From NCBI GenBank assembly GCA_030167865.1, contig JALAGF010003145.1, positions 1 to 64,000 on the forward strand: a DNA stretch of 64,000 nt. The letters run 5' to 3'. The notes beneath the pieces were generated by a model that saw nothing but the letters and a program-made list of their open reading frames with translations, made no database searches and had not been told where the DNA came from. This DNA is from Craspedostauros australis (Eukaryota). Within the stretch, counting starts at the first letter, position 1; the number at the start of each line of letters is the position of its first letter. Made by a program: the position numbers and the translations under genes. Shown one piece after another: positions 57,685 through 64,000 of the stretch.

Positions 57685-58603
57685 GGCTGCTATCGGATGG
57701 TGCTGTTGTTTTTGCTTTCAGTGATGCGATCAGCCCTTCAAGCGGATGCGGATCTGGGATGCTCTCTGCGGATCCTATGGTCGGTCTCTGTGTTGATTAC
57801 CCTGAACGACGACTTTGGTTCGGTCGAAGTCTCTCTCACCCTTGGATGGTTGATGGGTTGCTTCGATCTCGCTTCACTCTCTGTCGCTATGTTGCGACAG
57901 ATTGGATTGTGAGATGCGCGTCCTCGTATGGTCGTGTGGAAGTATCGCAGAGGATCCGTGACGGAGACAGAGTGGCTGGCAATCAGTCTCTGTATGTTGA
58001 TTGTATTGCGGGAGTACGAGTGTGGCCAGGTGACTTGCGGTCGGTCAGTCAGTCATTCATTCAATCTCATTCATTCAACGGACGATGCGCGATCATCGCA
58101 GTGTGCTTCTCTGGCGGACAGCAGTATTGTACAGTGCATCGATTGCCACGCAATGGATTGGCGGTTGAGACTCCTGAATTGTGACCTGATGGGTGCACCT
58201 TCGCGCCTCTGTCTGTGACCTGCAAGGACGTGTTTGCCACAGCAAAACAAGACGTGGTTGCTTCCTTGGTTGTTGTTGTGATTCTGGCGGGAAGTCGTCC
58301 AGACGTTTCAAAACCGTTATATCTGAGAAAGCGGCAATCGAGTGGATCGCATTGCTTCAATTCTCAGTTGACTAATGCGATCTACTGTCGCGCAATGACC
58401 TTCGTCATTTTTTCCTTTTTTTCTCAACGCGGATACCAACCCACACACGAAACACGGAATGAGATCATCGGCACTCATCCTGGGATGCAAGAGAGGACAC
58501 ACACAACAGAACATTGGATGAAGCACACGAGTGCTCGTTCAGAGAAGGCGAGAGGAATCAACGCAGCAAGCAAGCACAATAGAGAGAGACAGAGCTCGAA
58601 ACG

Positions 58604-59998
58604 ATGGCGACCATGGCATCCATCTCGATAGACTCGTTGCTGAAACGATTTCCCACATCCAACCACAGACGGTTGCCCTTCCTATCCAATGCCATTTACG
58701 AGCCCACCCTTTGGACAACGGCGGCATTGCATTACATCACCGAGCCGCTGGGGATCGAGCCGGAGGTTTCCATGCTCATCAACGGTGCATTCTTCGTCAT
58801 GCTCATCCTGCCGGTCCTTCTGGGATACACATCGCTGCAGCTTCTGCAGACATTCCTGCAGATTCCACAGCTCACCTCGTTGGTGATGCAGTACGTGGTG
58901 CTTCCCATGTCCGTGCTCTACATCGTCCTCATTCTCATCCTGGACAAATCGCATCTGCAAGTGAAGCATGCCAACGCGCGACGACCACAAACGCCAATGG
59001 GAGCCGCATCGTACAAGTTCTTTTCGGCCTGCTTGGACTACTTTCCCACCACGATCGTGCCGTGGAAGGAGGACGCCAAGCTGCCCACAGAGGACGGTCA
59101 GCAATACATCTTCGGCGTGCACCCGCATGGCATCCATTGCCTCGCCCTGGCTCCGCTGGGAGGCTTGGGAACGTTGTTTTCGGATCGATTCCCCGGTTTG
59201 CTGGATTCCAAATTGACCGGTTTGGCGGCCACCGTCATGTTCAAGATCCCTCTGGTGCGAGAGCTCTTTCTCAATATGAGCTACATCGACGCGTCACGAA
59301 AGATCGCCAGCGCTAGTCTGAAAGAAGGACGTTCCCTCTTCGTCTGTACGGGCGGCGAAGAGGAGAGCATGTACACCGAAATGGGCAAAGATATTGTCGT
59401 GTTGAAGAACAGGAAAGGCTTCATCCGATTGGCGCTGTCGTACGGTGCCGATCTGGTCCCTGTCTTCGGTGCGGGGATTACCGACTTTTACAGGGTGAGG
59501 AAGTTGCTCGCAGTGTGCATCTGATGCTGCATCTGATGCTGCTGCTGTGTAGTATTGGTGCCCCAGCTGCTTCCCGCATTGCAGAGGGAAAAGCGAATTT
59601 CTTCAAAGCAAACGATGTTGCCGCATAAACACAAACACATTGTGTCTCACTCATCATATCCCGTCAATTCTACAATTCACTGCCAACGTGGATAACACAC
59701 TTTCGCCGCGGGAATGTACATTTTTCAGACGTACGGATTCATGAGCAAACAAAGGATGTGGCTGCAAAAGAACTTTGGAGTTGCATTGCCGATCTTTCAT
59801 GGGCGGTGGTTCACCCCGCTACCGTACAGGGTCCCAATGAACATCCTGATTGGGGAACCGATCAAGGTGCCAAAACCAGCCGAGATTGGCGCGAAGCCAG
59901 ACCCCAAGCTTGTCGATGAGTACCATGCGAAGTACATGGAGGCATTGAAACTTCTCCACAGTAAGCACGTAAAGGATCGCGTGCTGGAGATTCGCTAG
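58604..59998 (+). CDS. DGAT2: Type 2 acyl-CoA:diacylglycerol acyltransferase (DGAT2/MGAT family)
   Basis: Exons 58604-59494 and 59729-59998. YFP, HPHG, GGEEE, RKGFIRLA..GADLVPVFG, HGR..PLPY and GEPI. Confidence 0.93.
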
Positions 59999-60304: not shown

Positions 60305-61051
60305 ATGAAGATGATGCTATCGATTTCCAACCGAAGCAAGCGTTGCAGGCCAGCACGGGTGCTGTCCTTGCTGGCCTGTTGCCGATCCGTGCGTGGATTG
60401 CACGTTGCCGTGATCACCGGCAACAGCCGAACATCGGGACCTCCCCGACCGATTCTGGGACCACGAGTGACGTCGTACATCCAAGGCGAGCTCGCACAGA
60501 GAGGACATGAAGTCTCCGTCATCGATCCGTTGCAATGGAAGCTACCTCTGCTGGAAAAGCCGCACTTTTGCTACGCCAAGGGCCGGGCACCACCTGAGCT
60601 GGAAGAAATCTACGGCATTCTGGACGATGCCGATGCCTACGTTTGCATCACCCCGGAATACAACCACGCACCATCTCCAGCGTTGCTCAACGTGCTCAAT
60701 CACTTCGGCTCGTCGACGTTCTCGTTCAAACCAAGCGCGATCGTTTCGTACTCTGCTGGACAGTGGGGCGGAACGAGGGCGGCGCTGGCACTGCGTCCAG
60801 TCCTGTCGGAGCTCGGATGCCTGCCAGTTTCTGCGATGATCCATATTCCAAAGGCACAGGAGATTTTGGAAGAAGGTGGCACATTGGCCAAGCCCGACGA
60901 TGCTGAAGAATGGTCGGGGTATTGCGGTCGCACCATCTCACAGTTGGAATGGTGGGGACAAGCAGCAAAAAGTCACAAGGAGACATCGGACCCGTTCGAT
61001 GCATCACCATCCTTCCAGAAAACAGCCTCGCAAAGGAATGCACCGAAATGA
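60305..61051 (+). CDS. NAD(P)H-dependent FMN reductase (flavodoxin-like)
   Basis: ITGNSR, ADAYVCITPEYNH, KPSAIVSYSAGQWGGTRA and LSELG. Exact start uncertain. Confidence 0.88.
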   Translation: MKMMLSISNRSKRCRPARVLSLLACCRSVRGLHVAVITGNSRTSGPPRPILGPRVTSYIQGELAQRGHEVSVIDPLQWKLPLLEKPHFCYAKGRAPPELEEIYGILDDADAYVCITPEYNHAPSPALLNVLNHFGSSTFSFKPSAIVSYSAGQWGGTRAALALRPVLSELGCLPVSAMIHIPKAQEILEEGGTLAKPDDAEEWSGYCGRTISQLEWWGQAAKSHKETSDPFDASPSFQKTASQRNAPK

Positions 61052-61393
61052 ATATGCAAAGAGAGCATCTGTAGAGTCGTATGGTATTCCTTTGACAGTG
61101 CAATTGTTACTCAATTATTAACGAGAAGCTTTGATTGCTTGTGCAATCCTTCTTTCTTATGCTCGTATTTGCCTCTTGGCATAGGTCTCTGAGAACGCCT
61201 CCTCGTATCAGTACGCATCCCTCATTCCGTCTCATGCGTATTTTACCCAAGGAGAGGTTGGCTGTGGATCAAAGATCAGCCAATTCCTTCGCCGTCGTCG
61301 CCGTCGTCGTCGTTGTTGCATTTGTTATTGCGTGCATCAGGTCACTGTGAAGAGTGTGGCAACGATCACGATGCATGCGTCACCCTGCTCTCT

Positions 61394-64000
61394 TTAAATC
61401 TCAAAATTCTGGACCGCACCATCCTTGTGGGAGATCTTCCAGGTCTTCACAGTCTTGCCACCCACCTTGATGTTCCAGACATGACCTTCGAACGTGTTCA
61501 GTCGTCTGTTTGTTTCCTCAAATCCAAGATCAGCCCAGAATTTGTCGCCGTAGTACAGTTTCGCAAATTTCATCAAGGGGTCCTTCTTGGTATTGGTGAA
61601 AGATGCAATGAGCTTGGATGTTGCGGTGACTTTTGTGGCTGCTGTATTTTTATTGTTCTTGGACTTGTCGCGCTGCGGCGCATCCGGGTATCCTTGGCGA
61701 GGACCTGCCAAGTCAAATTATGTTCACGGGATGTGCAATTGTGTGTGCGTATCAGCAGATTATGTTGGAACCGGCAATGGATAAGAAAGCACGAAGGTGA
61801 GTAGGGAGGATTAGGATACAAAAGCGACACCATTGAACGGCTGGCCTTCGACTGCGCAGGCAAACAAACAAAAATGGAGCGAACACACTGCCACTTCGTC
61901 CACCAAAGATGTGAGCTCAGCGCGACAGGGCTCAGCCATTTCGTGTTGCCATACAGTGGCCATGGTCGTGAGCGCAGGGCAAATGGTTGCCATCGATTTC
62001 GTTGCATTCATCAGTGCAATCGTCACAACTAACCATACGGCGCAACTCACCATTCCAAACTGTGAGGCAAGAACGTTGTGATGCATTGGGTGGTAATGAA
62101 ATGATGTGGTGAAATGCATTAGGTTGCAGAAACATGGAGACACAGAGGTGGAGTCGGAGCATTCAATGTGAGAATACGAAACGCAAGGTATACACAGGGC
62201 TGCAATAAACGACCATTTTCATCAAAACTTGGAGATGCATCAGTCCAATGCAGTATGAGTACTCACCCCACAGATTCGCCGCATACTTGTCACCCGCGAG
62301 AATTGGGCATGCCCCATGCAAGGATGAGTCATCGAGCTGTCCATTGGGATGCTGCGAGTAGAAGAGGACTGCACGCGACGAATGAGGTCGGATAGACAGC
62401 TTTGTTCGGCACGTCACAGTCTGCAAAGACGAAGTTGTATGTCGCGATTGGAGCATTGGATAGAGGTGGAGCGCGAGTGTACGTATGTCAGCGCATGAAT
62501 GAGTGGATGAGCAAGCGGGTGGATGAGCGAACACGGTTGCCTCTTCTCGATCACAGTGGTTGGCGTCTTGCATTGTGCGAATCAGCGAACAGCCCAGGAA
62601 TTCATCACCCGAATGCGCTCCTGTCTTCACAGCAGTTGTTGCTTCACAAACGGTGGATCGCAGAGCCTGTGAGCATTCCATCTCCCCGGCTTCTCTTCCT
62701 TCCATTTGGCACACACAAAACGTACCAGGTCTTCTTCCCACGAACCTCGTCGAAGAACGGCGCCCTTCTCAGATGATCTCAGTTGTGCCAGAGCCTGCAA
62801 CAATGAGCATAAATAGAGATGGAAGGGATGTGAGTTGTTTTGATGTACTCTATCGATCGTAGCATAGATCGGAGGATGATTGCATCGACTGGCGGGCACT
62901 GTGGACTTCTAGCGCCGGAGCACAGTGTACAACAGTGATGCGCAGGACACATGATGCTCTATCGACTTGCAAATCAATGCGCAGCAATATCATGCAAAAA
63001 CAACGAAAGGTGAGCCACTTCTATCCATGGACTCTGAAAACTCACCTCTGCTCTGTTCAATGGTGCATCGACATCGATGGAATCTGCGTTTGTAAAGACA
63101 GTCTCTCCGCCATCATTCTCGCCAAGGTCGGTCATGTACAGAAGGATAGTTGCAAAGCGGTTGGATCCCTTTCCGGAAGAATCGAAATCGTGATCCAATT
63201 GAAAGTCCTGTGGAACGAAGTTATTTTCGAATGAGACGAACGTAAATCAAGAAAGTGAGTACGTACAAGTCGGCATGATGTATTACAGTACGCATGCACG
63301 CACCTGGCTCAGGCACAGCCATCCATTGCAATACCAATGCACTCACCTTATCCTCCATGTAATCCAGGTGGGAATTGTACGCTTTAGTCTTGTTGTATCT
63401 GAGGATCTGCAATCCATCCGCGTGGCTCGCGATGTACGAATCATACCCCAGAGCCGAGAAACAGCGTCTGAGAGTGGAATGAGGTGCCCATAAAGCAAAG
63501 TATCAGTGAATGAATGAATGAATGAATGGGCGGGCGCATGTGATGATGTGTGTACGAGAGTGCAAACAGTGGGCAAACGAGAGCCAACACGCACAATTGC
63601 TGTGACGTATGGCATCACACCACACGATGCAATCTCTAATCCGGTGTATTTCAAGATATCATAACGACAGTGATGATCATCATGATCATTTTGAATGCGC
63701 TGAAACGTACCTCTTGACTTTCATCGACGTGACTCCGTCAGTATCGTATCCACTCTCCGATGTGCGCTTTGAGTTGAGATTGTACCCTGACGCGCCGGTA
63801 GAACTTCTCTTGATGCGATGGCTCTCCTTGGTTTCTGCTATGGCCTGCTGGACCAGATCCGAACTCTCGTCTCTGGAAAAGAAGTTGAAGACATCGAACA
63901 GGCGCGGCTCAAGGCTGAGGACCTTGAGGTAGATATTCTTGCCCTCCGATCCTTCCACGTGATTGAGATTGAATATTTCTCCCACGAACTTTGGAGCGTA
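61394..64000 (-). CDS. Prolyl 4-hydroxylase (2OG/Fe(II)) with a C-terminal VHL-beta-like domain; 5' end outside the window
   Basis: Exons >64000-63711, 63467-63347, 63207-63046, 62794-62726, 62420-62267, 62059-62051 and 61704-61394, all GT..AG and phase-consistent. Motifs LSLEPRLF, RTSE, DGLQILRY..YNSHLDY, NRFATILLYM..GGETVF and AVLFYSQ..SLHGACP..KYAANLWVWN. Confidence 0.9.

Follow-up and report, generated by a model that had tools for sequence, protein, structure and literature searches.

The 64,000-nucleotide (nt) stretch of Craspedostauros australis DNA analyzed here, called the window below, comprises positions 1 to 64,000 of the forward strand of contig JALAGF010003145.1 (GenBank assembly GCA_030167865.1). 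At its right-hand end, on the minus strand, lies a gene whose predicted product is a prolyl 4-hydroxylase (P4H) with a C-terminal tail, and several lines of homology support the tail as a genuine, divergent relative of the VHL beta domain. To our knowledge, only a handful of protein modules that recognize hydroxyproline are known, the classic one being pVHL. The gene pairs a known enzyme with a known reader fold in a combination that is conserved and undescribed; a literature search, with subscription journals outside its coverage, returned no paper describing a P4H-VHL fusion.

The P4H gene runs from 64000 to 61394 in seven exons, its 5' end cut by the window edge. With introns placed at GT..AG borders, the spliced frame is open over 371 codons. 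A 1178-nt contig of the public run X1 (a run whose type was guessed as RNA, without a record) aligns to 61200-63820 with 0 differences, skips exactly the predicted introns, and has GT..AG joints between all exons. Its 8 additional letters between 61705 and 62267, the two sides of a joint, match a 9-nt micro-exon; with this exon included, the P4H core ends in the family motif ANLWVWN, as in the homologues. At that size the micro-exon (62051-62059) is easily overlooked by gene predictors. Because the X1 contig joins the P4H core to the tail, the two belong to one spliced message and not to two genes; the fusion of a hydroxylase to a VHL-beta-like domain, proposed in a preliminary description of the locus, is thus real at the transcript level, and it recurs in other protists. 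Exon 1 aligns to residues 269-364 of the 641-amino-acid (aa) Nitzschia homologue P0031 with 69% identity over 96 aa, so about 268 N-terminal residues lie outside the window. A (TGAA)5.5 microsatellite sits at 63507-63528, inside the first intron, and the read alignment masked 63498-63540 as a repeat. The features of the gene are as follows, in the order of transcription, with pLDDT standing for the predicted local distance difference test.

63711-64000, minus strand: exon 1, cut at its 5' end; open frame, start of the P4H catalytic region; covered by the X1 contig over 63711-63820.
63347-63467, minus strand: exon 2, with X1 joints 63467-63711 and 63206-63346; carries the His-x-Asp pair.
63046-63207, minus strand: exon 3, part of the double-stranded beta-helix core; Pfam 2OG-FeII_Oxy_3 match; X1 joints.
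62726-62794, minus strand: exon 4; X1 joints; the spliced frame stays open.
62267-62420, minus strand: exon 5, with the distal iron His and the 2-oxoglutarate Lys; Pfam 2OG-FeII_Oxy_3 and 2jig matches.
62051-62059, minus strand: micro-exon of 9 nt, encoding V-W-N of the motif ANLWVWN; extra letters in the X1 contig; motif conserved in homologues.
61394-61704, minus strand: last exon, coding to the stop; linker, VHL-beta-like domain and stop.
61616-61704, minus strand: linker after the catalytic core, beginning PR-x-G-[YF]-P-x-x-P and then rich in Lys, Asn and Thr; from the family alignment, with a pLDDT of 60-65.
61397-61615, minus strand: VHL-beta-like C-terminal domain, 73 aa, seven predicted strands; AlphaFold2, Foldseek, VIA-align and hhalign.
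61535-61552, minus strand: Y56 (61550-61552) and W61 (61535-61537), aligned to pVHL W88 and Y98 in the hhalign and hmmsearch registers.
61475-61498, minus strand: predicted pocket motif N74-T75-F76-E77-G78-H79-V80-W81, aligned to pVHL H110-S111-Y112-R113-G114-H115-L116-W117.
61394-61396, minus strand: stop codon, with no alpha domain after it.
61200-61393, minus strand: 3' untranslated region, minimum extent; the X1 contig covers 61200-61705 and continues past 61200.

Residues of the tail are numbered in the stop-to-stop frame of 107 aa at 61717..61397 on the minus strand. Its 107 open codons end in ...KLIASFTNTKKDPLMKFAKLYYGDKFWADLGFEETNRRLNTFEGHVWNIKVGGKTVKTWKISHKDGAVQNFEI, followed by the stop at 61396-61394, and the peptide strings quoted in the preliminary description for 61394-61620 are present in this frame.

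The catalytic core is recognizable in pieces. Taken alone, exon 3 matches Pfam 2OG-FeII_Oxy_3 at an E value of 0.0062 (17.9 bits) and exon 5 at 3.9e-4 (21.8 bits); the division of the domain among exons keeps both scores under the 27-bit cut-off, and full-length homologues score 33.9-56.1 bits. The iron-binding His-x-Asp is found in the exon 2 motif SHLDY (His at 63368-63370, Asp at 63362-63364), and exon 5 supplies the distal iron His (62316-62318) and the 2-oxoglutarate Lys (62286-62288). Exon 5 aligns to Cr-P4H-1 of Chlamydomonas reinhardtii (PDB 2jig) at E = 1.2e-9 with SLHG...GDK in register, and all eight of its PDB matches are prolyl 4-hydroxylases. The homologue P0068 matches 2jig at E = 5e-22, its HxD aligned with that of Cr-P4H-1, and its nine PDB matches comprise P4Hs of algal, bacterial, collagen, transmembrane and viral types but not a HIF prolyl hydroxylase. 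By these alignments, the window gene encodes a P4H of the collagen/Cr-P4H type.

In its catalytic core, with the His-x-Asp...His and Lys aligned, the protein resembles Cr-P4H-1 (2jig, 3gze) and the plant and algal secretory P4Hs. Cr-P4H-1 is presented, in the part of PMC9676403 available, as a single-domain monomer without a separate peptide-binding domain, whereas the family of the window protein has an extra Cys-rich N-terminal region of about 270 aa, which has no Pfam match, as well as the VHL-like tail. This region is conserved before the P4H core in the homologues P0011, P0031, P0068 and P0088, with the motifs HRNGE, FCDMGP and LPCxFHTREG; a Pfam search of it in these four proteins at E<=1 gave chance-level rows only.

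The relationship of the tail to VHL was established through bacterial proteins. A HMMER search with the 79-aa tail against 1.84 billion cluster representatives gave 100 matches at E<=1e-3, of which 17 were at E<=1e-10 and four were bacterial; a family profile recovers 95 at E<1e-10. One of the 100, P0065 (SpaA repeats), was set aside as a false positive, since the family profile detected no domain in it below E = 0.01. Two of the bacterial proteins have multiple repeats that Pfam assigns to VHL: P0009 (E = 5e-17), which also has a sorting domain of the type IX secretion system (T9SS), and P0036 (E = 9.4e-13), which also has a MACPF domain. The tail profile spans the repeats of both almost end to end. 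In a PDB sequence search, P0036 matched human pVHL chains at E = 4.5e-4, and P0009 gave 0 matches. We compared 97 tails with 13 Pfam-VHL-positive bacterial repeats by hhalign, which returned a probability of 98.9 (E = 3.5e-17, 58 columns), with all 11 controls (10 column shuffles and one reversal) at a probability of 2.2 or less.

As the 13 repeats had been found through the query, a further set was sought. A genome scan with P0036 led to an open reading frame (ORF) of 1888 aa in Amaricoccus sp. B4 (L001:5980-11643, plus strand) in which Pfam recognizes nine VHL repeats (E = 1.5e-96). Every one of the nine is aligned by the tail profile in a common register, hhalign of the tails against them gave a probability of 97.0 (E = 7.9e-11, 59 columns), and one repeat on its own aligns to human pVHL for 60 residues without a gap (E = 2.4e-8). 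In this ORF the repeats are followed by a beta/gamma-crystallin-like region (spherulin 3A, E = 4e-7). An ESM Atlas search with P0001, a homologue of 55% identity, had as its best feature cluster "VHL beta domain-containing protein" (score 0.91, 192 of 256 features), with PF01847 on 51% of the cluster's members, and the structural template modeling (TM) scores to PF01847 clusters were 0.66-0.72. The likeness of the tail to the VHL beta domain, which had been suggested by eye, is borne out by the two hhalign comparisons and by the match of the Amaricoccus repeat to pVHL. The best PDB sequence match of the tail itself, undecaprenyl-diphosphate synthase (E = 0.44 with the tail and 0.11 with the profile), was judged to be due to chance.

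The predicted structure of the tail agrees with this assignment. For the 102-aa last exon and an alignment of 76 sequences, AlphaFold2 predicted seven strands at a mean pLDDT of 85.5, with 93-97 over residues 30-102 and 60-65 in the linker. When this model was compared with the PDB by Foldseek, 33 of the 37 rows among the matches listed, including ranks 1-7, were chains of pVHL complexes, with TM scores of 0.46-0.54 on the full 102 residues (0.52-0.54 for ranks 1-7) and a root-mean-square deviation (rmsd) of about 3 Å. VIA-align, which is independent of Foldseek, searched 48,161 representative chains, and its first two rows were again pVHL:

Rank 1: 7khh_C, Z = 7.5, rmsd 2.8 Å, 72 residues, 17% identity, pVHL residues 67-151.
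Rank 2: 4wqo_A, Z = 7.4, rmsd 2.5 Å, 71 residues, 17% identity, pVHL residues 68-151.

The 17% identity to pVHL is the highest in the VIA-align list, tied with one row at rank 29. In both fold comparisons, then, of the kind that the preliminary description had called for, pVHL is the best match with middling scores; the fold accordingly agrees with the sequence evidence and would not carry the case alone.

We derived the correspondence between tail and pVHL residues by chaining printed alignments, and counted residues over the 97 tails of the family. The human pVHL residue numbers are those that we take to be standard, checked against printed fragments and a chain length of 160 residues. The correspondences are listed by tail position, with family counts out of 97 where these were made.

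F40 corresponds to pVHL F76, by alignment.
N42 corresponds to pVHL N78, by alignment.
Y56 corresponds to pVHL W88; Tyr 53, Phe 30, Trp 11 (aromatic 94).
W61 corresponds to pVHL Y98; Trp 85, Phe 9, Tyr 3 (aromatic 97).
N74 corresponds to pVHL H110, by alignment.
T75 corresponds to pVHL S111; Thr 86, Ser 11.
F76 corresponds to pVHL Y112, by alignment.
G78 corresponds to pVHL G114, by alignment.
H79 corresponds to pVHL H115; His 88, Gln 6, Asn 2, Asp 1.
W81 corresponds to pVHL W117; Trp 95.

The hydroxyproline site of pVHL is made up of W88, Y98, H110, S111, H115 and W117, and S111 and H115 bond the hydroxyl, according to the part of PMC9528729 available. As aligned, five positions of this pocket are kept in the tail and are nearly invariant in the family. 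An earlier line-up of a Thr, a His and a Trp with S111, H115 and W117, with aromatic residues near the W88 and Y98 positions, is reproduced by the profile alignments as T75, H79 and W81, with Y56 and W61, and the conservation of these residues extends across the 97 family members. Of 23 VHL-like repeats from bacteria, seven have another residue in place of the His, and three have Phe in place of the Trp. The fold therefore tolerates the loss of either residue, and the near-invariance in the P4H tails, where His, Gln or Asn is found at the His position in 96 of 97, points to function.

Beyond the seven-stranded beta-sandwich of its best fold match (PF01847; 7khh_C, 4wqo_A, 1lm8_V and 4ajy_V), the tail shares with human pVHL, in a common order and register, the F-x-N, the aromatic residues at W88 and Y98, and the motif [N/H]-[T/S]-[F/Y]-x-G-H-x-W. 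It differs in several respects. At about 73 aa it is smaller than the pVHL beta domain, which has roughly 90-100 aa, and it falls below the threshold of the Pfam VHL model. The aromatic types are swapped (W88 to Tyr, Y98 to Trp), and the segment with N67 and R69 is replaced by a variable linker. The tail lacks the alpha domain with its BC box and hence the link to elongin C and cullin, and it is covalently joined to a hydroxylase, probably in the secretory pathway.

The bacterial VHL-beta proteins (the Amaricoccus ORF L001, L003, and the T9SS cargo P0009 and P0100) belong to the same domain family and have the pocket motif; they are prokaryotic, often arranged in tandem arrays, and many pass the Pfam VHL threshold, but none of those examined is fused to a hydroxylase. 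Bacterial VHL-beta domains have been catalogued, with their function described as unknown in the available parts of PMC7736814 and PMC9002001. A metagenome scan gave four loci, three of which (L002, L003 and L004) are one bacterial peptidase gene, the fourth (L005) being without a Pfam family. In L003 (1211-3460, plus strand), a 750-aa ORF combines Peptidase_S9 and DPPIV_N with a Pfam VHL insert (27.3 bits) whose pocket motif is identical to that of the window at 13 of 18 positions, and this architecture agrees with an ESM Atlas cluster. The three ORFs neighboring this gene have no Pfam family. L003 is a second fusion of a VHL-beta domain to a proline-directed enzyme, and as such it fits a coupling of hydroxyproline writing and reading.

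The fusion of a P4H to a VHL-like tail recurs in diatoms and other protists. The preliminary description had asked about this architecture in stramenopiles, and named members of the family were seen in Thalassiosira punctigera, Nitzschia sp. and Tribonema gayanum; their source annotations are hypothetical or 2-oxoglutarate (2OG) oxygenase. In a deliberately loose motif test of the sequence upstream of the domain, 52 of the 95 members showed the end of a P4H core, 32 had fewer than 25 residues, and 11 had other or linker-like sequence; many of the short matches are gene-call fragments. The domain lies at the extreme C terminus, with at most one residue after it in 68 of the 95. A Pfam scan of 29 longer matches found 2OG-FeII_Oxy_3 before the domain in 18, VHL in three (P0009, P0036 and, below the cut-off, P0008), no family in six and other families in two. 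P0008, a metagenomic protein of 162 aa, consists of two tandem tails of the P4H type with no hydroxylase part, one copy scoring 18.7 bits to Pfam VHL, and is possibly a stand-alone reader. A word-indexed homologue search with the tail found none in the "longer" or "near" length classes, and one with the P0031 tail found three proteins only, all labeled PF13640 alone; a scan of viral contigs with P0001 found no relative. One eukaryotic ESM Atlas cluster (score 0.81, a lead only) has an automatic name that joins 2OG-FeII_Oxy_3, present on 55% of its members, to VHL, present on 26%, so that the databases already partly register the architecture. Atlas rows for Oomycota, Haptophyta and Cercozoa are likewise no more than leads to its wider distribution.

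The cellular location was judged from the homologues. Six of the eight long ones have an N-terminal 15-aa stretch with a Kyte-Doolittle (KD) value >2.1 and no other hydrophobic segment, which suggests a signal peptide or anchor, and the same may be expected of the window gene. No VHL alpha domain or BC box follows the tail, since the stop comes 26 residues after W81. Because the homologues have a signal-type start and the alpha domain is lacking, a secretory enzyme appears likely and oxygen sensing unlikely. Diatom walls and the silaffin tpSil1H contain dihydroxyproline, as stated in the available part of PMC5501833, so Pro-rich wall proteins are plausible substrates. No strongly Pro-rich reading frame, as an evident substrate, was found in the 64,000-nt window.

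On balance, we favor the view that the gene encodes a secretory P4H joined by a flexible linker to a minimal VHL-beta sandwich, whose tail probably binds hydroxyproline and tethers the enzyme, so that writing and reading are coupled. The tail would form a pocket with aromatic walls (Y56 and W61), a pair that binds the hydroxyl (T75 and H79) and a Trp floor (W81), and would hold, within an extended peptide, a residue derived from proline, of which 4-hydroxyproline is the most probable. Once bound, it would tether the enzyme to substrates that are already partly modified, and neighboring prolines of Pro-rich secreted, cell-wall or silica-associated proteins could then be hydroxylated efficiently, in a role comparable to that of the carbohydrate-binding modules of glycosidases. 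What the analysis shows is the gene model with its fusion, the homology of the tail to VHL beta, its fold and the conservation of the pocket positions; from these we infer the secretory location, the bound ligand and the processive hydroxylation that would result.

Several observations weigh against this interpretation. The preliminary description had pointed to the Pfam VHL beta domain for comparison, and there the tail has no family at E<=10 and so does not reach the VHL gathering score (21 bits); a weak Pfam VHL match (E = 0.046) came from only one of the 72 family members, and pVHL was absent at E<=10 from the PDB sequence matches of the tail and of a profile of 72 sequences. The hhalign test with 13 repeats is partly circular, because these were picked up via similarity to the query, and, with P0036 as its starting point, the Amaricoccus set is independent only in part. 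Foldseek listed no PDB match at E<=1e-3, the best being at a middling 5.8e-3; in VIA-align, best Z scores of 7-8 are typical even without a true match, and rank 3 is an unrelated lumenal domain with Z = 6.9, less than one Z unit behind pVHL. The pocket correspondence is drawn from sequence and profile alignments. With Trp at the Y98 position, the tail lacks the hydroxyl that bonds the hydroxyproline carbonyl in pVHL, and the loop that follows the W88 position is shorter than that of pVHL by about five residues. Finally, the N terminus of the window gene itself lies beyond the window edge.

The tail could instead be a peptide binder of the VHL-beta type that recruits unmodified Pro-rich substrate. 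The aromatic walls of the pocket could accommodate a plain proline ring as well, and there is precedent for such a module in animal collagen P4H, which has a separate domain that binds Pro-rich and hydroxyproline-containing peptides (PMC12433258, in the part available), a domain that enzymes of the Cr-P4H type lack (PMC9676403, likewise in part). What makes this unlikely is the pair of polar residues: Thr or Ser is found in 97 of 97 tails and His in 88 of 97, at the positions of the pair that bonds the 4-hydroxyl in pVHL (PMC9528729, in part), and the fold can dispense with the His, as 7 of 23 bacterial repeats do. A different job for a VHL-like fold seems more improbable still. The tail might dock a secretory partner enzyme, bind a glycan, or fold onto the linker motif PR-x-G-[YF]-P-x-x-P as a regulatory pseudo-substrate; many lower VIA-align rows are carbohydrate-binding or transthyretin-like beta-sandwiches (Z of 5-6), and the linker motif is conserved in the family. 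Against this, pVHL comes first in both fold searches, the conserved residues coincide exactly with the hydroxyproline-pocket positions of pVHL, and the linker, with its pLDDT of 60-65, is modeled at low confidence and therefore offers no confident docked pose. The motif might nonetheless be a self-substrate or docking site for the tail.

We give very little credence to a cytosolic oxygen sensor whose tail, like pVHL, passes hydroxylated targets to a ubiquitin ligase. Oxygen sensing had been raised in the preliminary description as an alternative, and it draws on analogy to the animal PHD-HIF-VHL pathway only. The early stop leaves no alpha domain or BC box, the closest solved cores come from the secretory-type Cr-P4H-1 and from bacterial and collagen P4Hs (a HIF hydroxylase is absent from the nine PDB matches), and six of eight long homologues have signal-type N termini; a role as E3 adaptor or oxygen sensor was accordingly rejected. 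It is just as hard to credit that a small, unrelated beta domain has come to look like VHL through a chance motif match. The lack of a direct Pfam or PDB sequence match of the tail and the middling fold scores would be expected in that case, but not hhalign probabilities of 98.9 (58 columns) and 97.0 (59 columns) when none of 11 controls exceeds 2.2, nor a single register across nine of nine Amaricoccus repeats. In addition, pVHL ranks first of 48,161 chains with the top identity of 17% (shared with the rank-29 row), and the Atlas feature search leads to PF01847.

Among the known systems, animal collagen P4H alpha offers a parallel to the coupling of enzyme and reader proposed here, in that a P4H domain and a separate module binding Pro-rich and hydroxyproline-containing peptides are present in one chain (PMC12433258, in the part available). 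This peptide-substrate-binding (PSB) domain, whose mechanistic role is still called unknown in that part of the source, is possibly a functional analogue of the tail. The two are not homologous: PSB is helical, of the tetratricopeptide repeat (TPR) type, and precedes the catalytic domain in an alpha2beta2 tetramer with protein disulfide isomerase (PDI), whereas the module in the window is a VHL-type beta-sandwich that follows the core.

The surroundings of the gene have no evident tie to it. Upstream on the forward coordinates, 60305-61051 (plus strand) encodes an NADPH-dependent FMN reductase (Pfam FMN_red), and 58583-59998 (plus strand) a diacylglycerol acyltransferase in two exons (Pfam DAGAT). 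The window as a whole has a G+C content of 54.4%, and no tRNA genes or Rfam families at gathering score were found in its 64,000 nt.

The conserved fusion of a hydroxyproline-reader fold to an enzyme that makes hydroxyproline is "Rosetta-stone" evidence on the ligand of the domain, and the tail is a small, confidently modeled domain for direct tests of hydroxyproline reading. More tentatively, and with rather more doubt than belief on our part, hydroxylation may be self-reinforcing: the tail would read the 4-hydroxyproline that the core has just written, driving modification along Pro-rich wall, silica-associated or adhesive proteins, perhaps as far as 3,4-dihydroxyproline. In this extended scenario, hydroxyproline reading would be an ancestral, mostly extracellular job of the VHL fold, later borrowed by animals for HIF oxygen sensing; given the bacterial fusion to a proline peptidase and the fusion to P4H, such an ancestral role would follow if hydroxyproline reading is true. 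The coupling of writer and reader, if true, would suggest how algal P4Hs, without the PSB domain of animals, find and fully modify their substrates, and it points to an enzyme that may be relevant for the wall and silica proteins of diatoms that bear hydroxyproline and dihydroxyproline.

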